Shown here piece by piece: positions 2,454 through 11,560 of a DNA stretch of 64,000 nt. Under the pieces are notes generated by a model. The model had not been told where the DNA came from and did not search any database. It saw only the letters and a program-made list of their open reading frames with translations. The stretch's first letter is position 1, and every line of letters begins with the position of its first letter. Made by a program: the position numbers and the translations under genes. This DNA is from a plasmid, in assembly GCF_054482525.1 (NCBI RefSeq), contig NZ_JBTHVG010000004.1; one strand, given 5' to 3'.

Positions 2454-2914
2454 ACCAGGCATGTATATTTTACGCAGGGACATGCCGGTCATGATCGTTT
2501 CGTTCCAGGGGTGGTCTGGAGATCATGCGGTGTGCTCCCTGCTCTCGCCGGAATAAGGACGTCGCCGCCGGCTCCGCTTTTACCCGGCCATGCGGGGCAT
2601 GGCCTTGTGGGTTTTCAGTTATGTGGCCTCAGCGTCGTGTGCGGGCTGTGCCGTGCCTCCATCGTAGCCGGGCTTCTGCGGGCGGGTTGCAAGGTAAGGT
2701 GAACCGCTGCGGTCACCCGGTCCCTCCTTCCCGTCCGCCGTGATTTTCCGGTCGTTCACCCGCTCAGATTTCGCGGTCTCACCCTCCAACTCCCGCCAGC
2801 CGTGTGCGTCAGGCTGCGGCTTCCCTTGCGCCCTTGCAACCCTGCAGGCCCGGCAAAGATGGAGGCACGGCACCGCCCGGTGTCGCAGAACATGTGACTA
2901 TGGAGGATTCGGGA

Positions 2915-3415
2915 ATGTCTGTTGTTGCACCTGCTGTATACGTTGGAACCTGGCACAAATACAACTGTGGAAGCATCGCCGGACGCTGGTTTGACCTGAC
3001 CACGTTTGATGATGAGCGCGACTTTTTCGCCGCCTGCCGTGCTCTTCACCAGGATGAAGCCGATCCTGAACTGATGTTTCAGGATTATGAGGGATTCCCG
3101 GGGAATATGGCCTCTGAATGCCATATCAACTGGGCCTGGGTTGAAGGCTTCCGCCAGGCACGGGATGAAGGCTGCGAAGAGGCTTATCGTCTCTGGGTGG
3201 AGGATACCGGTGAGACGGATTTTGACACCTTCCGCGATGCCTGGTGGGGCGAGGCTGACAGTGAGGAGGCTTTTGCGGTTGAGTTCGCCAGTGATACCGG
3301 CCTGCTGGCTGACGTGCCGGAGACGGTGGCGCTCTATTTTGACTATGAGGCGTATGCGCGGGATTTATTCCTGGACTCCTTCACCTTTATTGACGGTCAT
3401 GTGTTCCGTCGGTGA
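2915..3415 (+). CDS. ardA: ArdA antirestriction protein (type I restriction inhibitor, DNA mimic)
   Basis: 166 aa from the internal ATG at 2915 (MSVVAPAVYVGTWHKYNCGSIAGRWFDLTTFDDERDFF...), matching ArdA length and acidic composition; the longer 2804 start runs into a GC-rich leader. Confidence 0.9.
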   Translation: MSVVAPAVYVGTWHKYNCGSIAGRWFDLTTFDDERDFFAACRALHQDEADPELMFQDYEGFPGNMASECHINWAWVEGFRQARDEGCEEAYRLWVEDTGETDFDTFRDAWWGEADSEEAFAVEFASDTGLLADVPETVALYFDYEAYARDLFLDSFTFIDGHVFRR

Positions 3416-3770
3416 TTTACTCCCCCGCTCCGGCGGGGGTATGGCCTGCCAGGCCGCCGGAAAACCCTGGCAGGCTTACGCCTGCCTGAAATGCAGGAGG
3501 GCCGCGCCTGCGGCGCTGCCCTTCCTGCCCGTCATGGTGTGAGGCATTTTTCTGTTATGTCGTTTCTGTTGTTCTGATTTCCGGAGGCGGGGACACCTTC
3601 GGCTCCCGGCTGCCTGGCGGCATCCGGTCGTCAGGCCCGACTCCGACAGGCAGCTGCTGGCGCACCCGCCAGTCTCCGCCGAACCCGCTGGCGCGGTTTC
3701 GGGCTGCCGCTACGGTCCGATGTCTGAAAAACCAGGCTTGCAGCGACCGTTCCGGTCGCGCCGCCCCTGT

Positions 3771-4120
3771 CGCGCCGGAAACGGCGCTCCCTGCACACCT
3801 GACGGTGTGTAAGGCCACTGCGCCTGATGGCGCAGTCAACCCTTCCGCCGCCACCCCTGCGGCCTGTTTCCCGCTGTGGACTTTCCGGGGGCTGGAGTAA
3901 CCACATCCCGTTTCAGCAGTCCAGGGGAAGATATACCGTCCACAAAATTTTTAGCCATAAACCCGGCAAAAAATTTTGCGTCCGCCCCCGGACAGCTGCC
4001 CCGTGACGTGGTGACGGACGCCCCATCGGAAAGGTCCACTGCGGGGAGAAACCCCGAAGAAGTGGACGGCAGAAGGGGCTTTCGCCCCTCCGGGGAGCAA
4101 CCGGTCGGCCCGGCGACCTG
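3771..4120 (+). promoter_or_regulatory. Frpo/ssi-like structured repeat, copy 1 (putative single-strand promoter)
   Basis: About 350 bp non-coding block repeated at 6637..6990 with internal palindromes (CACACC-TGACG-GGTGTG; CTGCGCC-TGAT-GGCGCAG); ends about 20 bp before ORF 4144. Confidence 0.55.
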
Positions 4121-4937: not shown

Positions 4938-5001
4938 TTAACCCTTGCCGTCTGCCTGTGCAGGCGGCAGGATACGTTCAGACATCTCACCAGGAGGAAC
5001 C

Positions 5002-5892
5002 GTGAGTAAGAAGAAAACCACCACGACGCCCACGCCGCATGATGCCGCGTTCCGGTCGTTCCTGGCGAATCCCGACGTCGCCAGAGATTTTCTGGAACTG
5101 CATCTTCCGGCGGAGTACCGGCAGTTGTGCGACCTGTCCACGCTGAAGCTGGAACCCGCCACCTTTGTTGAGCCGGACCTGCATCAGTACGCCAGCGATA
5201 TCCTCTGGAGTGTGAAAACCACCGGGGGTGAAGACGGCTATGTTTATACGCTCATCGAGCACCAGAGCACCGAAAATCTGTACATGCCTTTCCGCATGTT
5301 ACGTTACAGTGTGGCGGCGATGCAGAGACATCTGGAGCAGCACAAAACGTTGCCACTGGTGATTCCTGTGCTGTTCTATCATGGTGAGCGCAGCCCGTAC
5401 CCGTACAGCATGAACTGGCTGGACTGTTTTGAGAATCCGGCACTTGCGGCTAAAATATACACAAAGCCGTTTCCGCTGGTTGATATCACTGTCGTTGATG
5501 ACAATGAAATCATGAACCATCGCCGGATGGCCGCACTGACGCTGCTGATGAAGCATATCCGCCATCGTGACATGATGGATCTGCTGGACAAACTCCCGCA
5601 GGTCATGGTGGAAATTTCAGACGAGCAGGTGCGTGTTCTGATTCATTACATCGTTAACGCAGGGGACTCTGTATCACCGGAATTTATGCGGGCGCTGGCT
5701 GAGCGTCTGCCGCAGCATGAGGATAAACTGATGACTATCGCAGAACGTCTTGAGCAAAAAGGTCGCCAGGAAGGAGCGCTTGAAAAAGCCCTGGCTATTG
5801 CGTGCCAGCTTCAGAAAATGGGGATGACGCCGGAGCAGATTAAGCAGGCTACCGGACTTTCCGAAGCTGAACTGAAAAAAATCATTCACTGA
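5002..5892 (+). CDS. Rpn-family (YhgA-like) PD-(D/E)XK recombination-promoting nuclease
   Basis: GTG start at 5002 with strong RBS (caggaggaac cGTG); product VSKKKTTTTPTPHDAAFRSFLANPDVARDFLELHLP... resembles E. coli Rpn proteins across the nuclease core and C-terminal domain. Confidence 0.75.
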   Translation: MSKKKTTTTPTPHDAAFRSFLANPDVARDFLELHLPAEYRQLCDLSTLKLEPATFVEPDLHQYASDILWSVKTTGGEDGYVYTLIEHQSTENLYMPFRMLRYSVAAMQRHLEQHKTLPLVIPVLFYHGERSPYPYSMNWLDCFENPALAAKIYTKPFPLVDITVVDDNEIMNHRRMAALTLLMKHIRHRDMMDLLDKLPQVMVEISDEQVRVLIHYIVNAGDSVSPEFMRALAERLPQHEDKLMTIAERLEQKGRQEGALEKALAIACQLQKMGMTPEQIKQATGLSEAELKKIIH

Positions 5893-5902
5893 TGAGAGCA
5901 TC

Positions 5903-5930
5903 ACAGCCCGGCAAAATGCCGGGCTTTTTT
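5903..5930 (+). terminator. rho-independent terminator after the Rpn gene
   Basis: cagcccggcaaaatgccgggc followed by a T-run. Confidence 0.6.
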
Positions 5931-5954
5931 GTCAGCAGGAGCAGAGAAAACAGT

Positions 5955-6149
5955 ATGACGCTTGCAGAACGTCTTATACAGAAAGGTTTCGACGAAGGTT
6001 TTAAAGAAGGTTTTAAGAAAGGTGCGCTTGAAGTGGCGCGGGAAGCAGCCTGCCGGCTGCGGGATATGGGCTGGACGCCGGAACGGATTCAGGAGGCGAC
6101 CGGACTTTCCGGTGAAGAACTGAAAAAGCTGTTTCCTGATGAGCAGTAG
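5955..6149 (+). CDS. stand-alone Rpn C-terminal-domain paralog (about 64 aa)
   Basis: MTLAERLIQKGFDEGFKEG...MGWTPERIQEATGLSGEELKKLF aligns with the last about 55 aa of the upstream Rpn (MTIAERLEQKGRQEGALEK...MGMTPEQIKQATGLSEAELKKII). Confidence 0.6.
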   Translation: MTLAERLIQKGFDEGFKEGFKKGALEVAREAACRLRDMGWTPERIQEATGLSGEELKKLFPDEQ

Positions 6150-6179: not shown

Positions 6180-6431
6180 TCACACATTCCCTGCCGTTTC
6201 CCCCAGTTCATTTTCCAGACGCCTGATGATATCTGCCTTGCGCATCCCCTGCATGTGAGGCAGCAGGTCACGGACTGAAAGTGCCTGGGTGGTCCTCCAG
6301 ACGGTGACGTCCACCTGTTCCGCATTTTCCCAGGCGTGCCATGTTCTCTGCGTCACGCCAAATTCTCTGGCCGCTTTTTCGCGTGACCATAGCATGCTTT
6401 TTCGCCAGATTCGCAGTTCCCAGCCGGTCAT
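6180..6431 (-). CDS. small helix-turn-helix DNA-binding protein (83 aa)
   Basis: REKAAREFGVTQRTWHAWENAE resembles an XRE/Cro-type HTH; palindromic sites lie in its upstream region. Confidence 0.5.
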   Translation of the reverse strand: MTGWELRIWRKSMLWSREKAAREFGVTQRTWHAWENAEQVDVTVWRTTQALSVRDLLPHMQGMRKADIIRRLENELGETAGNV

Positions 6432-6447
6432 AAAACACCTTTGAAAA

Positions 6448-6535
6448 AGTGAAAAAACTTCACTTTATTTTATCATCACAATTGCCAAATCAGCGCGATA
6501 AATAAGTGTAAAAAAGTGAAGAAATTTCACTTTTT
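6448..6535. promoter_or_regulatory. pair of 15 bp palindromes (GTGAAAAAACTTCAC and GTGAAGAAATTTCAC), putative operators
   Basis: Two near-identical inverted-repeat sites about 65 bp apart, immediately upstream of the minus-strand HTH gene. Confidence 0.35.
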
Positions 6536-6636
6536 TTGTTTGTAAGTGTCGTGCGGTTTTCTCTGTTTTCACCTGTGCGGGAGTGGTGTGCCAGTGACCA
6601 CCACATGCCATTGTTGTGCCGTCGTTTTTCTTCAGT

Positions 6637-6990
6637 CGCGCCGGATGCGGCGCTCCCTGCACACCTTACGGTGTGTAAGGCCACTGCGCCTGATGGCGCA
6701 GCTGTCTCTTGCCTGTCTGCCGCCGCACTGCGGCCTGTTCTCCGCAGACGGACTTTCCGGGGGTACATACACGACCACATCCCGTTTCAGTCGTCCAGGG
6801 GAGAGATGTACCAGCCACAAAACTTTTTGCCGCTGGCGTCAAAAACTTTTGCGTCTGCCCCCGGACAACTGCCCCGTGACGTGGTGAGCGTCCCCCGTCG
6901 GAAAGGTCCACTGCGGGGAAATACCCTAAGACCCGGACGGCAGAAGGAGCTTCGCTCCTCCGGGAAATGACCTGGCTGACCCGGCAGTCG
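6637..6990 (+). promoter_or_regulatory. Frpo/ssi-like structured repeat, copy 2
   Basis: Homologous to 3771..4120 over its whole length with scattered substitutions; ends about 20 bp before ORF 7012. Confidence 0.55.
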
Positions 6991-7011
6991 TGACGATGAG
7001 GAGACAATGTG

Positions 7012-7860
7012 ATGAATCAGACTTTACCCACTGCTGACCTGAATACTGCCGGCACGACAGATGTTATTCCGTCTGTGGCTATCGACCGCATCATCGCGCA
7101 GCGTAACGAAGGTATTGCACTATTCATGCAGGCGATGGAATGCCTGGCGACAGCGCGCAGGATTCTGCTCGATGCGTCAGGTGATATTTTTCTTTACGGG
7201 TTTGAAGACTGCGTGACTGATTCCGTTCGTCGCATGGATAAGCCGGAAGAAGCGAAAAGGAATATCACCCGTCTTGCCGACCGGAAAATCTGGGACCGCC
7301 TGATGACAGATACGGGCATGTACACCTTCATGAGTTCATGCCAGCGTGATGAGTGGAACAGCCAGCTGATGAGCGACACCTGTCCTGAAATCACCCTGGA
7401 CAATGTACTGGCAACATTCCGCCATCTTAATACCAGCAAGATGCAGACGTTTGAACAGGGACTGATTGATGTCTACCGGAAATTGTCATGGGATTACAGA
7501 ACCAATAATCCCTGCCGTCTGGGCAAGAAAATCATTATTGAAAACATGCTGTACCGCTGGAGTAACGGGCGTGTGACGCTGGACTGCAGCGGACGGGAGG
7601 CACTGGATGACCTGGTACGTCCTTTTTATCTGCTGGAGGGGCGAAACGTTCCTGACTTCCGGAGCAGCATCGGGGCGCAGTATGGTGAATTTCTCGGGAA
7701 CGGCGACAACGTCGGTAAGCTGTTAGAAGGGGAATATTTTACGGTGCGTGGCTACCAGAAAGGGACCGTACACATTGTCTTTAAGCGTCCTGACCTTGTT
7801 GAAAAACTGAATGATATTATTGCACGGCATTATCCTGGTGCATTGCCGCCACGAGTCTGA
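7012..7860 (+). CDS. leading-region hypothetical protein (about 282 aa) downstream of ssi-like repeat
   Basis: ATG at 7012 after GAGGAG RBS; long clean ORF; no domain assigned with confidence. Confidence 0.6.
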   Translation: MNQTLPTADLNTAGTTDVIPSVAIDRIIAQRNEGIALFMQAMECLATARRILLDASGDIFLYGFEDCVTDSVRRMDKPEEAKRNITRLADRKIWDRLMTDTGMYTFMSSCQRDEWNSQLMSDTCPEITLDNVLATFRHLNTSKMQTFEQGLIDVYRKLSWDYRTNNPCRLGKKIIIENMLYRWSNGRVTLDCSGREALDDLVRPFYLLEGRNVPDFRSSIGAQYGEFLGNGDNVGKLLEGEYFTVRGYQKGTVHIVFKRPDLVEKLNDIIARHYPGALPPRV

Positions 7861-7867
7861 TTAAACA

Positions 7868-7905
7868 GAAAAGCCCTGGTATTTATGCCGGGGCTTTTTT
7901 TTCTG
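7868..7905 (+). terminator. rho-independent terminator
   Basis: agccctggtatttatgccggggc followed by a T-run of 8. Confidence 0.6.
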
Positions 7906-7945
7906 TAATCATCATAATCTCAGAACACGATGTGACATTGTCACA

Positions 7946-8287
7946 TCAATTGTTGTTCATATCGATGCCATCTTTCCTGCCTGAATCTGTCTTTTTAGGT
8001 GCTGTTTTAGAGGAAGAACGGCGGGATGGTTTTTTCGATTCTGCTTCCCGAATAATGTCACGAAGTGCCTTCTCTCCTACTTCATACCCTGCATTTTTAA
8101 GCGTGTCACGAACATCTGCCAGTGTATAACCCTTTGTCCTTACCAGGACAATGATGTCATCACGAATGGCATCAAGAAAATCACGCAATGTTTTCCGTTG
8201 AGCGGTGAGGTCCGGCAATTCCGATAAGGCAGCTTTTGCCAGCTGGATGTCATCATCTGAGTAAAATTTTTTAGAAGCCATTGGCAC
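7946..8287 (-). CDS. hypothetical protein (113 aa) with basic Ser/Lys-rich C-terminus, adjacent to oriT
   Basis: Clean ORF; tail SKKPSRRSSSKTAPKKTDSGRK suggests nucleic-acid binding; no family assigned. Confidence 0.5.
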   Translation of the reverse strand: MPMASKKFYSDDDIQLAKAALSELPDLTAQRKTLRDFLDAIRDDIIVLVRTKGYTLADVRDTLKNAGYEVGEKALRDIIREAESKKPSRRSSSKTAPKKTDSGRKDGIDMNNN

Positions 8288-8289
8288 TT

Positions 8290-8514
8290 TCTCTCCGTTT
8301 CATGTTGAAGTCTGATTTTATCATCAAAAACTGACTCCTGGCAGGGCTGCGCCCTGCTTCTGCCGTCTGCATAAGACTATGATGCACAAAAATAACAGGC
8401 TATAATGGCCTGAAAAACGGGACAGGATGTGCAATTGTAATACCGTCACACGCGACGCTATTACAATTGCCATCTGGTCAGGGCTTCGCCCCGACACCCC
8501 GTAAGGAGCCTGAA
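8290..8514. other. oriT region (IncI1-type) with NikA-binding inverted repeat
   Basis: Intergenic region upstream of nikA containing the imperfect inverted repeat GCAATTGTAATA...TATTACAATTGC (about 8430..8470) and the palindrome CAGGGCTGCGCCCTG (about 8340). Confidence 0.65.
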
Positions 8515-8847
8515 GTGAGTGATAGTGCGGTAAGAAAGAAAAGTGAGGTACGGCAAAAGACAGTTGTCAGGACACTCAGATTCTCTCCTGTTGAGGATGA
8601 AACCATCAGGAAAAAAGCTGAAGATTCCGGACTTACTGTATCTGCTTACATCCGAAATGCAGCACTGAATAAGCGAATTAACTCCCGTACAGATGATGCT
8701 TTTCTGAAGGAGTTAATGAGACTGGGAAGGATGCAGAAGCATCTGTTTGTTCAGGGAAAAAGAACCGGTGACAAGGAATACGCAGAAGTGCTTGTTGCCA
8801 TAACCGAACTTACAAATACATTGCGTAAACAGTTAATGGAAGGTTGA
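8515..8847 (+). CDS. nikA: NikA relaxosome accessory protein (ribbon-helix-helix)
   Basis: 110 aa from a GTG start after AGGAG RBS (VSDSAVRKKSEVRQKTVVRTLRFSPVEDETIRKKAED...), matching R64 NikA; the upstream part of the listed ORF is oriT. Confidence 0.85.
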   Translation: MSDSAVRKKSEVRQKTVVRTLRFSPVEDETIRKKAEDSGLTVSAYIRNAALNKRINSRTDDAFLKELMRLGRMQKHLFVQGKRTGDKEYAEVLVAITELTNTLRKQLMEG

Positions 8848-8857
8848 GGATTCTCCG

Positions 8858-11560
8858 GTGAATGCAGTCATTCCGAAAAAGAGAAGGGACGGCAAGTCTT
8901 CGTTCGAAGACCTGGTATCCTACGTCTCTGTCCGGGATGACATGACCGATGAGGAACTGGATTTATCTTCTTCTTCGCAGGCTGAACAACCGCACCGAAG
9001 CCGTTTCAGTCGCCTTGTTGATTATGCGACACGTCTTCGAAATGAGTCATTCGTGGCGCTGGTTGATGTCATGAAGGACGGCTGCGAATGGGTCAACTTT
9101 TATGGTGTCACCTGCTTTCATAACTGTACTTCTCTTGAAACTGCCGCTGCAGATATGGAGTACATTGCCCGGCAGGCACACTATGCAAAAGATGACACTG
9201 ATCCTGTTTTTCACTACATCCTTTCCTGGCAGTCACATGAAAGCCCGCGTCCGGAACAGATTTATGACAGTGTACGTCATACGCTGAAATCACTCGGCCT
9301 TGCCGACCATCAGTATGTCTCTGCCGTGCATACTGATACAGATAATCTGCACGTCCATGTGGCTGTTAACCGGGTACACCCTGAAACGGGTTATCTGAAC
9401 CGGTTATCATGGAGTCAGGAAAAACTCAGTCGTGCCTGCCGTGAGCTTGAACTGAAGCATGGTTTTGCTCCGGATAACGGTTGCTGGGTCCATGCGCCGG
9501 GAAATCGTATCGTTCGCAAAACTGCCGTTGAACGTGATCGCCAGAACGCTTGGACACGCGGAAAAAAACAAACTTTTCGCGAGTATGTTGCGCAGACAGC
9601 GGTCGCTGGTTTACGCAGTGAACCTGTACATGACTGGTTATCCCTGCATCGTCGTCTTGCTGAAGATGGTTTGTACCTGTCTCAGATGGACGGAAAATTT
9701 CTGGTGATGGATGGCTGGGATCGCAACAGGGAAGGTGTACAGCTTGACTCGTTTGGTCCCTCCTGGTGTGCAGAAAAACTCATGAAAAAAATGGGTGACT
9801 ACACGCCAGTGCCAAAAGACATTTTCAGCCAGGTGGAAGCACCAGGACGCTATAATCCGGACTTCATTGCAGCTGATGTTCGCCCGGAAAAAATCGCTGA
9901 AACAGAAAGTCTGCAGCAGTATGCCTGTCGTCATCTTGGAGAACGTCTGCCGGAAATGGCACGGGAAGGACGGCTGGAAAACTGCCAGGCTATTCACCGC
10001 ACACTGGCTGAAGCGGGATTATGGATGCGTGTTCAGCATGGTCACCTGGTTATCTGTGACGGTTATGATCATAACCAGACTCCCGTTCGTGCTGACAGCG
10101 TATGGTCACTGCTGACGCTCGACAATGTGAATCAACTCGATGGTGGCTGGCAGCCTGTACCAACAGATATTTTCCGCCAGGTTACGCCAACAGAACGCTT
10201 CCGTGGTCGTCGTATGGAGAGCTGTCCTGCGACCGATAAAGAATGGCACCGTATGCGTACAGGTACGGGGCCGCAGGGGGCTATCAAACGCGAACTGTTT
10301 TCTGACAAAGAAAGTCTGTGGGGATACAGCATCAGCCATTGTAGCCCTCAGATTGAAGAAATGATCACACAGGGTGAGTTTACCTGGCAGCGTTGTCATG
10401 AGTTGTTTGCACAACAGGGACTGATGCTACAGAAACAACATCACGGGCTTGTTGTCGTTGATGCCTTTAATCATGAGCAAACGCCGGTGAAGGCCAGCAG
10501 CATTCATCCTGATCTGACTCTGGGGCGTGCAGAGCCACAGGCCGGACCTTTTGTGAGTGCCCCAGCAGATTTGTTTGACAGGGTGCAACCTGAAAGTCGC
10601 TATAACCCGGAGCTGGCTGTCAGTGACAGGTACGGGGTCAGCAGTAAACGTGACCCAATGCTGCGCCGGCAGCGACGTGAAGCCAGAGCTGAGGCCCGTG
10701 CTGACCTGCGTGCCCGCTATCTGGCATGGCGTGAACAATGGCGTAAACCAGATCTGCGTTATGGGGAACGTTGTCGGGAAATTCATCAGGCATGCCGTCT
10801 GCGGAAGTCACACATTCGTGCGCAGTACGATGATCCGGCATTACGTAAGCTGCATTATCACATTGCAGAAGTTCAGCGAATGCAGGCATTGATCAGGCTG
10901 AAAGAAGACATCAGGGATGAGCGGCAGAAACTTATTGCTGACGGGAAGTGGTATCCACCCTCTTACCGTCAGTGGGTCGAAATTCAGGCTGCTCAGGGAG
11001 ACAGGGCTGCTGTATCGCAGCTGAGAGGCTGGGATTATCGCGATCGCCGTAAAGATAAGTCACGCACAACGACAACAGACCGCTGTGTCGTGCTTTGTGA
11101 ACCGGGCGGAACGCCGGTATACGGTAATACCGGTGATCTCGAGGCCCGTTTGCAGAAGAACGGGAGTGTTCGTTTCCGTGACCGTCGGACGGGAGAGTTT
11201 GTCTGTACGGATTATGGTGACAGGGTTGTTTTCCGTAATCACCATGACCGCAATGCGCTGGCAGATAAACTGGATTTGATTGCACCGGTATTATTCGGGC
11301 GTGATCCACGCATGGGTTTTGAACCAGAAGGAAACGACAAACAATTTAACCAGGTCTTTGCTGAAATGGTTGCCTGGCATAATGTGACAGGCCGTACCGG
11401 TCACGAAGACTACAGGATTACGCGACCGGACGTGGATCATCACCGTGAAGGAAGTGAACGCTACTACCGCGATTATATCGCGGCGAACAGCAACGATGAC
11501 GCATCACTGCCTCCGCCGGAGCAGGATAAACTCTGGGAACCGCCTTCTCCGATGAGATGA
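8858..11560 (+). CDS. nikB: NikB relaxase (MOBP-type)
   Basis: 900 aa ORF after nikA; contains the histidine motif HVHVAVNRVHPETG; size matches R64 NikB. Confidence 0.9.
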   Translation: MNAVIPKKRRDGKSSFEDLVSYVSVRDDMTDEELDLSSSSQAEQPHRSRFSRLVDYATRLRNESFVALVDVMKDGCEWVNFYGVTCFHNCTSLETAAADMEYIARQAHYAKDDTDPVFHYILSWQSHESPRPEQIYDSVRHTLKSLGLADHQYVSAVHTDTDNLHVHVAVNRVHPETGYLNRLSWSQEKLSRACRELELKHGFAPDNGCWVHAPGNRIVRKTAVERDRQNAWTRGKKQTFREYVAQTAVAGLRSEPVHDWLSLHRRLAEDGLYLSQMDGKFLVMDGWDRNREGVQLDSFGPSWCAEKLMKKMGDYTPVPKDIFSQVEAPGRYNPDFIAADVRPEKIAETESLQQYACRHLGERLPEMAREGRLENCQAIHRTLAEAGLWMRVQHGHLVICDGYDHNQTPVRADSVWSLLTLDNVNQLDGGWQPVPTDIFRQVTPTERFRGRRMESCPATDKEWHRMRTGTGPQGAIKRELFSDKESLWGYSISHCSPQIEEMITQGEFTWQRCHELFAQQGLMLQKQHHGLVVVDAFNHEQTPVKASSIHPDLTLGRAEPQAGPFVSAPADLFDRVQPESRYNPELAVSDRYGVSSKRDPMLRRQRREARAEARADLRARYLAWREQWRKPDLRYGERCREIHQACRLRKSHIRAQYDDPALRKLHYHIAEVQRMQALIRLKEDIRDERQKLIADGKWYPPSYRQWVEIQAAQGDRAAVSQLRGWDYRDRRKDKSRTTTTDRCVVLCEPGGTPVYGNTGDLEARLQKNGSVRFRDRRTGEFVCTDYGDRVVFRNHHDRNALADKLDLIAPVLFGRDPRMGFEPEGNDKQFNQVFAEMVAWHNVTGRTGHEDYRITRPDVDHHREGSERYYRDYIAANSNDDASLPPPEQDKLWEPPSPMR

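Follow-up and report, generated by a model that had tools for sequence, protein, structure and literature searches.

The yggA gene beside the origin of transfer of an IncI1-type plasmid encodes a predicted helix-turn-helix protein and a probable donor-acting repressor of the divergent nikAB operon

In conjugative plasmids such as R388 (IncW) and RP4 (IncP-1), a small gene is found just beyond the nick site (nic), on the side that enters the recipient first. It diverges from the relaxosome operon and, in R388, encodes StbA, while in RP4 it encodes TraK. Here, we discuss the gene found at the corresponding position, yggA, in a stretch of 64,000 nucleotides (referred to as the window; NCBI RefSeq assembly GCF_054482525.1, contig NZ_JBTHVG010000004.1), where it is located on the minus strand at 7946..8281, beside the transfer origin (oriT). 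Reasoning from the described systems, YggA is probably a DNA-binding protein that acts in the donor and represses the divergent promoters of nikAB and of yggA itself; the classification that most likely goes with this function is that of a two-part protein of the same kind as StbA, TraK and Orf35 of plasmid pCTX-M3.

In R388, trwA diverges from stbA, stbB and stbC come after stbA, and ssb, ardC and other leading genes converge toward this segment (NC_028464). The StbA protein is required for stable plasmid maintenance and recognises two sets of five 9-bp direct repeats; it represses its own promoter as well as other leading-region promoters, and its loss increases conjugation ~50-fold. Iterative PSI-BLAST searches grouped StbA_R388 with TraD_NAH7, TraK_RP4, MobC_pTF-FC2 and YciA_R721, and the stb genes were found on the 3' side of the nick, i.e., among those that reach the recipient first (Guynet 2011). 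The stb operons listed in that study belong to MOBF11, MOBP11, MOBP6 and MOBP13/14 plasmids, mostly with mating-pair formation systems of type T (MPF_T), and IncI1, which is of type I (MPF_I), is absent from the list.

In RP4, traJ and traK are divergent, and traK, which is followed by traL and traM, has the same position and orientation as yggA. TraK contributes positively to relaxosome function, while YggA, by contrast, is dispensable. A small basic protein, TraK binds oriT in the segment between nic and its own gene, and it represses the traJ and traK promoters. Transcription of traK, like that of yggA, uses the complementary rather than the transferred strand as a template. In a transcriptome study of RP4 mating (PMC7314908) traK, traL and traM were marked accordingly, and in the recipient-specific comparison (rifampicin-sensitive donor, resistant recipient) their transcripts changed 1.1- to 1.4-fold, as compared to 5- to 15-fold for genes that are templated by the transferred strand.

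Within the YggA/Orf35 group, repression has been measured only for Orf35 from IncM plasmid pCTX-M3 (named "MobC" in IncL/M annotations, including that of pOXA-48), which is a direct YggA homologue of the same size class with a published identity of 32%. Both orf35 and yggA are the first leading-region gene of their plasmid, both diverge from nikA-nikB and both are dispensable for transfer. Replacement of orf35 by a cat cassette resulted in a rise in nikA, nikB and traH transcripts by factors of ~40, ~23 and ~80, respectively, and deletion of orf35 increased mobilisation of an oriT plasmid >200-fold while self-transfer was unchanged; later constructs without orf35 were 100- to 1000-fold better mobilisers. 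The authors interpreted Orf35 as a putative repressor of the tra operon and pointed out that it lacks any known DNA-binding motif. For yggA itself, a transposon-sequencing (TnSeq) study of pESBL gave probabilities of 0.99 for non-essential, 0.00 for essential for maintenance and 0.01 for required for transfer. The preliminary description of the window had taken dispensability for transfer, together with a lack of DNA binding, as a reason to give up a function at oriT; such dispensability is already published for both yggA and Orf35, yet it is compatible with the role of a repressor.

The window belongs to a conjugative plasmid of the IncI1 type (an IncI1 resistance plasmid): nucleotide comparison with public records showed 99.9% identity between bases 7800-8900 and hundreds of IncI1 plasmids. 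The gene order in the matching records is ygfB (DUF4942), yggA, nikA and nikB, and the minus-strand gene beside oriT is yggA, which is thus already named, albeit uncharacterised, and which is annotated as yggA or "MobC" in thousands of IncI1 records. The open reading frame (ORF) can be extended to 7946..8287, i.e., to a GTG codon at 8287 that would yield 113 residues, which is the form considered in the preliminary description, while all public annotations start at the ATG at 8281, yielding 111 residues. The latter start is favoured because of its better spacing to the ribosome-binding site, a Shine-Dalgarno sequence GGAGAG read from the minus strand at 8296-8291, 9 nt upstream of the ATG. The possibility that yggA is not a real gene was ruled out: the protein is conserved, a clear motif pattern persists down to ~25% identity and synteny is kept. 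Thousands of records carry the RefSeq/PGAP product name [quoted passage not shown]. Judging from the family scans, this name is a misnomer: neither the MobC relaxosome-accessory families nor the molybdopterin "Mob" families of Pfam and NCBIfam matched YggA at E<=1. It seems to have arisen by corruption of "MobC", the mobilisation-gene name that is used in IncL/M annotations and for pTF-FC2.

The spacer between yggA and nikA (8282-8514) contains a complete IncI1 oriT. A repeat search identified the NikA-binding 17-bp inverted repeat (8431..8470, with arms at 8431-8447 and 8454-8470). An 8-bp inverted-repeat hairpin, reported for oriT of the R64 type, is found at 8476..8494, and the five lineages in an alignment of the spacer all have an identical core, GTCGGGGCG.AGCCCTGA. 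The nick region CATCCTG|TCCCG, which corresponds to the MOBP consensus, is read on the minus strand from 8429 to 8418 and is nearly unchanged in all aligned lineages. This consensus is one base away from the proximal arm of the 17-bp repeat, and the cleavage point is 8 nt past the arm; from the consensus and the spacing we infer that nic is located on the minus strand, between 8423 and 8422. The position of the nick relative to the inverted repeat agrees with the published layout of the R64 and RP4 oriT regions. The relaxosome genes follow on the plus strand, divergent from yggA: nikA (8515..8847), encoding the relaxosome accessory protein (Pfam NikA-like, E 3.5e-22), and the relaxase gene nikB (8858..11560; assigned from the ORF and annotation). 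In more than 1000 small plasmids of the Col-like kind (1.5-5 kb), only a ~90-bp oriT of the IncI1 type is present (corresponding to 8414-8503, 80-96% identity); these plasmids lack yggA and nikAB as well as the segment between nic and yggA, and one oriT of this type, that of pEC156, was reported to be mobilised by R64.

Because the inverted repeat lies 5' of the nick on the nicked strand and therefore enters last, the minus strand is the transferred strand, with its 5' end at 8422 and running toward lower coordinates. The start codon of yggA is found 141 nt from nic without any gene in between, i.e., yggA is the oriT-closest leading gene and the first one to reach the recipient, as stated in the preliminary description. 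In sense, the yggA mRNA corresponds to the transferred strand, which consequently cannot be its template. Conversely, psiB (707-1144), psiA (1141-1860), ardA (2804-3415) and ygfB (7009-7860) are all located on the plus strand such that the transferred strand is their template. The nick consensus and the strands of the genes thus bear out the earlier statement that yggA, unlike psiB and ardA, cannot be expressed from the transferred single strand. Leading genes that are expressed from single-stranded DNA (psiB, ardA and ssb, from Frpo-type promoters) share the leading-region location with yggA on the same plasmid, but their template is the transferred strand, whereas yggA is found on the opposite strand. 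Frpo-like repeats at 3769-4023 and 6635-6896 precede plus-strand genes rather than yggA, and the nearest of them belongs to ygfB. The leading genes of IncI plasmids are described in the literature as co-oriented and driven by Frpo-type single-strand promoters. The reversed orientation of yggA relative to these genes is real, but yggA is not the sole exception because ygeA (6180-6431) is also found on the minus strand. Nor is the orientation an oddity; traK and stbA are as a rule laid out in the same way.

The pairing of yggA with the relaxosome genes is conserved far beyond IncI1. Searches using tblastn identified YggA homologues in 3544 of the 72,556 plasmid records in PLSDB (~5%), including those of IncL/M-type plasmids at 38-44% identity. 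All fetched loci that were long enough have a yggA-like gene that diverges from a nikA-like gene followed by a MOBP relaxase gene, at a distance of ~230-300 bp. These loci comprise the I-complex variants L010, L011, L013 and L016, the pOXA-48-type IncL plasmid L014, another MPF_I plasmid, typed as IncFII, whose MobC is IncL/M-like (L015), and metagenome and genome contigs harboring homologues of 31-36% identity (L002-L005). The neighbouring leading genes (DUF932, DUF5983, PsiA, PsiB) are found on the other strand, pointing toward oriT. The retention of this arrangement from 100% down to ~31% YggA identity would be hard to explain if there were no functional link to the relaxosome genes.

The protein consists of two dissimilar parts. 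The isoelectric point (pI) of YggA is 9.36, but this basicity originates from the C-terminal tail (residues 86-111; pI 10.4), a Lys/Ser/Thr-rich segment in which 7 of the 26 residues are Lys or Arg and another 7 are Ser or Thr, and not from the core (residues 1-85), which is near neutral (pI 6.2). A phmmer search of 1.84 billion cluster representatives yielded 78 family representatives at E<=1e-3, and an alignment of 49 full-length members displayed the core pattern LPDL..R.T...L..LK..I..L...KGYs..dI..aL...G..vS.kaI, followed by a variable tail. In an AlphaFold2 model based on this alignment (mean predicted local distance difference test, pLDDT, 80.6) five helices are seen (residues 9-20, 32-38, 40-48, 54-63 and 70-82); the pLDDT is 86-95 for most of the core, ~76 for the loop 21-30 and 56-61 for the tail 86-111. 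The model suggests that residues 1-85 form a helix-turn-helix (HTH) core, while residues 86-111 constitute a disordered, variable basic tail. The preliminary description had argued for DNA binding from the Ser/Lys-rich tail; the case is instead based on the conserved HTH core, because the tail is the variable, disordered part of the protein. This HTH assignment is new for the YggA/Orf35 family, which was earlier described as being without a DNA-binding motif.

Among sequences in the PDB, the YggA family profile matched the C-terminal HTH of sigma-54 (E 3e-4) and the DNA-binding domain of R388 StbA (E 0.04), while scans of YggA against Pfam and NCBIfam gave only sub-threshold matches (parts of transposase HTH domains, Clr5 and Nif11). 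Alignment of the family with the single StbA sequence using hhalign gave a probability of 85% (E 6e-6), and with a 30-member StbA alignment a probability of 81% (E 1.3e-5, 78 columns); 100 column-shuffled controls all stayed below the observed score (maximum 17.9 vs 35.3). The N-terminal tri-helical HTH domain of the R388 StbA structure (PDB 7PC1) was judged to be present in the YggA model, with StbA as the best structural match, and in both proteins the HTH domain would be followed by a non-conserved, disordered C-terminal part. The similarity to TraK is weak, albeit in the same HTH register (hhalign probability 10%, E 0.003): YggA did not match the TraK family PF17273 (DUF5338) at E<=1, only one of the 49 family members did (E 0.0042), and a search of PDB sequences with the TraK profile gave no relevant match. 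Membership of YggA in the TraK family was consequently rejected. Affiliation with the StbA/TraK group, as a solo member on MPF_I plasmids, is nevertheless probable on account of the fold ranking, the longer aligned span that includes the N-terminal helix, the shared architecture and the genomic context.

With respect to context, stbA and yggA are both located just beyond nic on its 3' side, diverge from the relaxosome operon and face the leading genes. They differ in that stbA is followed by stbB, which encodes an ATPase, and by stbC, while yggA stands alone, the next gene, ygfB, being convergent. A neighbouring ATPase gene of the stbB type was not encountered in IncI1 and is found only with the most distant members of the YggA family (loci L006 and L008). 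The genes of two of the most distant relatives, P0129 and P0127, are each followed by a gene for a ParA-like ATPase with a KGGTGK motif, and the ATPase of L006 is homologous to RP4 TraL (E 1e-8). The P0129 and P0127 loci thus form a contextual bridge from the YggA family to the traK-traL and stbA-stbB operons.

The following scheme would account for these data. A sigma-70 promoter of its own would drive transcription of yggA in the direction away from oriT, and only when the DNA is double-stranded, i.e., in the donor, or in the transconjugant after synthesis of the complementary strand. Using its HTH core, YggA would bind within the ~140 bp that separate nic from the yggA start codon, likely at either or both of two palindromes, O1 and O2, that overlap the -35 regions of the nikAB and yggA promoters, and would thereby keep expression of the relaxosome genes low. 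A low relaxosome supply would not limit self-transfer of a low-copy plasmid, but it would limit mobilisation of multicopy plasmids that carry an oriT of the IncI1 type. Upon loss of YggA, self-transfer would continue, nikAB would be derepressed and mobilisation of co-resident IncI1-type oriT plasmids would increase. The earlier suggestion that the protein acts in the donor on oriT-proximal DNA, although not the argument from the tail, would thus fit the HTH fold, the pairing with nikA, the derepression observed in the absence of Orf35 and the behaviour of TraK and StbA.

A consensus scan yielded a predicted yggA promoter on the minus strand at 8315..8344, with the -35 element CTGCCA at 8344-8339 and an extended -10 element TGATAAAAT at 8323-8315; the arrangement of the -35 and TGn-10 elements is kept in two diverged I-complex lineages of the spacer alignment. 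On the plus strand, the sequence TATAAT at 8401..8406, which is conserved in the I-complex lineages, is probably the -10 box of nikAB. Since this box lies beyond nic, on the leading side, nicking would part the promoter from nikAB on the template strand, as has been reported for RP4 traJ. The palindrome O2, GCAGGGC-GCA-GCCCTGC, is found at 8341..8357, overlapping the yggA -35 element, 66 nt from nic, and is a candidate operator or a putative hairpin in the transferred strand. An Enterobacter lineage keeps the symmetry of O2 by changes on both arms (GGCAGTGC-GGA-GCACTGCC). The palindrome O1, CATCATAGTCTTATGCAG, at 8367..8386, is imperfect in IncI1, covers the predicted -35 region of nikA and is a candidate YggA operator. 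The same position holds a perfect CATCATA-N4-TATGATG in L011, and a different perfect palindrome, TCGCC-TAGT-GGCGA, in the Enterobacter lineage.

Plasmid pHUSEC41-1 (L016) carries a natural exchange of the adjoining segment. Its YggA is 100% identical and its DNA from nic to yggA is ~98% identical, while both arms of the 17-bp repeat that NikA binds have been rewritten and NikA shares only 59% identity (8430-8847 in the window, 3830-4401 in L016). The breakpoints coincide with the boundary between the nick and the repeat and with the start of nikA, i.e., a modular swap of specificity. O1 is identical in this plasmid; the 17-bp repeat thus goes with NikA, and O1 and O2 go with YggA, which would be consistent with these palindromes being YggA operators. 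At the corresponding positions of the aligned IncL/M-type oriT regions the I-complex palindromes were not found, and the idea of operators conserved in those loci was dropped. As a separate observation, two similar GC-rich hairpins, CAGGGC-NNN-GCCC(T/C)G, flank the oriT core 137 bp apart (8341-8357 and 8476-8494), of which the copy on the nikA side is the known 8-bp inverted repeat. The copy on the leading side has, to our knowledge, not been described before.

A number of points weigh against the proposal that YggA is a repressor of the StbA type. A Foldseek comparison of the YggA model with the PDB yielded nothing significant, with calmodulin-like helical proteins at the top. In a control, a fragment comprising the sigma-54 HTH scored as well against the YggA profile (92%, E 7e-7) as did StbA, which means that sequence alone establishes an "HTH domain" and not the "StbA family"; a claim of StbA homology on that ground was dropped. 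No array of direct repeats similar to the stbDR sites of StbA was found in 8250-8530, where a repeat search revealed only two two-copy families. The stbDR core TGCATCAT is found in one exact copy beside yggA (8379-8386), but there are 8 copies in the window, as compared to 4.3 expected, and none in leading-region promoters; the motif is not enriched and the copy was treated as a chance occurrence. Linkage to yggA by itself would explain part of the O1/O2 pattern, which is based on only 3-4 lineages. The complementation of orf35 was weak and dependent on conditions, so its phenotype could in part be a cis effect of the inserted cassette. Furthermore, nikAB of pCTX-M3 heads a long tra operon, such that Orf35 also controls genes of the type IV secretion system, whereas nikAB of IncI1 is a separate two-gene operon, and the consequences of losing the repressor may therefore differ. 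Neither of the two transposon screens of I-complex plasmids reported yggA as a repressor of transfer; in that of pMS7163B, using transposon-directed insertion-site sequencing (TraDIS), yggA is listed neither as required nor as a repressor. This silence is expected if only mobilisation of multicopy oriT plasmids benefits from loss of yggA. Finally, a repression phenotype and dispensability for transfer are published for homologues or analogues, while the identity of the operators, autoregulation and repression in IncI1 itself are inferred.

Because YggA occupies the position of TraK, which binds between nic and its own gene, it could alternatively be a positive, architectural accessory of the relaxosome that wraps or bends the DNA beside nic and aids NikA and NikB, any effect on transcription being secondary. 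The weak profile similarity in the same HTH register and the single family member that touches PF17273 (E 0.004) point in the same direction. We consider this role unlikely because yggA insertions are neutral for transfer in pESBL and were not flagged in pMS7163B, because deletion of orf35 raises mobilisation instead of lowering it, and because the small oriT-only plasmids, more than 1000 in number, manage with the ~90-bp segment, as illustrated by the mobilisation of the pEC156 oriT by R64. The lack of a match of YggA itself to the TraK family in Pfam also argues against it.

A donor-acting repressor differs in its timing from one that acts mainly in the new transconjugant, where YggA would be made early, once the leading end has become double-stranded, and would shut off nikAB or leading-region promoters and end the burst of expression during establishment. 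The location of yggA at the extreme leading end would suit such a function, repressors of incoming plasmids are thought to end zygotic induction, and StbA represses several leading-region promoters. RP4 traK, which has the same orientation, is however only 1.1-fold changed in recipients, far below the 5- to 15-fold of genes templated by the transferred strand. In addition, the Frpo-like element closest to yggA is that of ygfB, and a search for further copies of the candidate operators elsewhere in the leading region found none. To the same degree as the architectural role, this one appears improbable.

Still less probable is a function as an StbA-type adaptor for positioning or segregation, which would tether the plasmid to the nucleoid and set stability against transfer, with transcriptional effects as a by-product. 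StbA is the best structural match, it shows the same two-domain architecture and itself has a dual role, and the distant family members adjoin genes for StbB/TraL-like ATPases. IncI1 plasmids have, however, a separate partition system. In addition, yggA of IncI1 is not followed by an stbB-like gene, the next gene being convergent, and no centromere-like repeat array was found upstream of yggA. StbA is needed for stability, while the pESBL data assign yggA a zero probability of being essential for maintenance. That YggA is a generic small HTH regulator of targets unrelated to transfer (cargo or host genes), found near oriT by historical accident, is the least credible option: the similarity to the sigma-54 HTH is as strong as that to StbA and two transposon screens gave no phenotype, but the pairing with nikA and the relaxase gene is kept from 100% to ~31% identity across IncI1, I-complex, IncL/M and uncharacterised contigs, and Orf35 displays a transfer-related phenotype.

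Some features of the neighbouring DNA are of interest in their own right. Between the convergent genes ygfB and yggA, a GC-rich hairpin flanked by A/T runs is seen by eye at 7873..7903. A terminator scan did not list it and we assign it little weight, but it is probably a bidirectional terminator, in which case yggA would be monocistronic. The second leading-region gene on the non-template strand, ygeA, encodes an 83-residue protein with HTH_31/HTH_3 similarity and is located just before a Frpo-like element. The two copies of the repeated element, 3769-4023 and 6635-6896, are 87-96% identical, and each precedes leading genes of the plus strand; compared with shuffled sequences, the minus strand of 6440-7005 has a far stronger predicted fold (z -8.8), which is consistent with single-strand promoters of the Frpo/ssi type. 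With such a promoter, ygfB would be the first gene that the transferred strand can template. A 124-nt direct repeat of 72% identity (5756-5879 and 6004-6127) links the 3' end of a Transposase_31/YhgA-like gene (4945-5892) with the next ORF of 85 residues (5892-6149), which suggests a partial duplication of the C-terminal coding region.

Much of the above was known, i.e., yggA was already named, the phenotype of a homologue and the dispensability were published, and the layout would be expected by a specialist in conjugation. What is added here is the HTH assignment, the probable placement of YggA as a solo StbA/TraK-like protein on MPF_I plasmids, and candidate operators and promoters. A more far-reaching proposal, which we put forward only tentatively, is that YggA is an StbA-like protein that works without StbB on MPF_I plasmids, using palindromic operators instead of arrays of direct repeats, and serves as a gatekeeper of the relaxosome supply in IncI1, I-complex and IncL/M plasmids (including pOXA-48), such that natural loss alleles would turn these plasmids into super-mobilisers of small Col-type plasmids with an IncI1 oriT. 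The placement with StbA and TraK replaces a misleading database name and extends a known pattern to MPF_I plasmids. The plasmids that harbor YggA homologues include IncI1 plasmids encoding extended-spectrum β-lactamases and carbapenemase plasmids of the pOXA-48 type. If YggA limits the relaxase in the same way as Orf35, it would set the efficiency at which the small plasmids with nothing but an oriT of the IncI1 type, over 1000 in number, are mobilised, and loss of YggA would yield more efficient helper plasmids.

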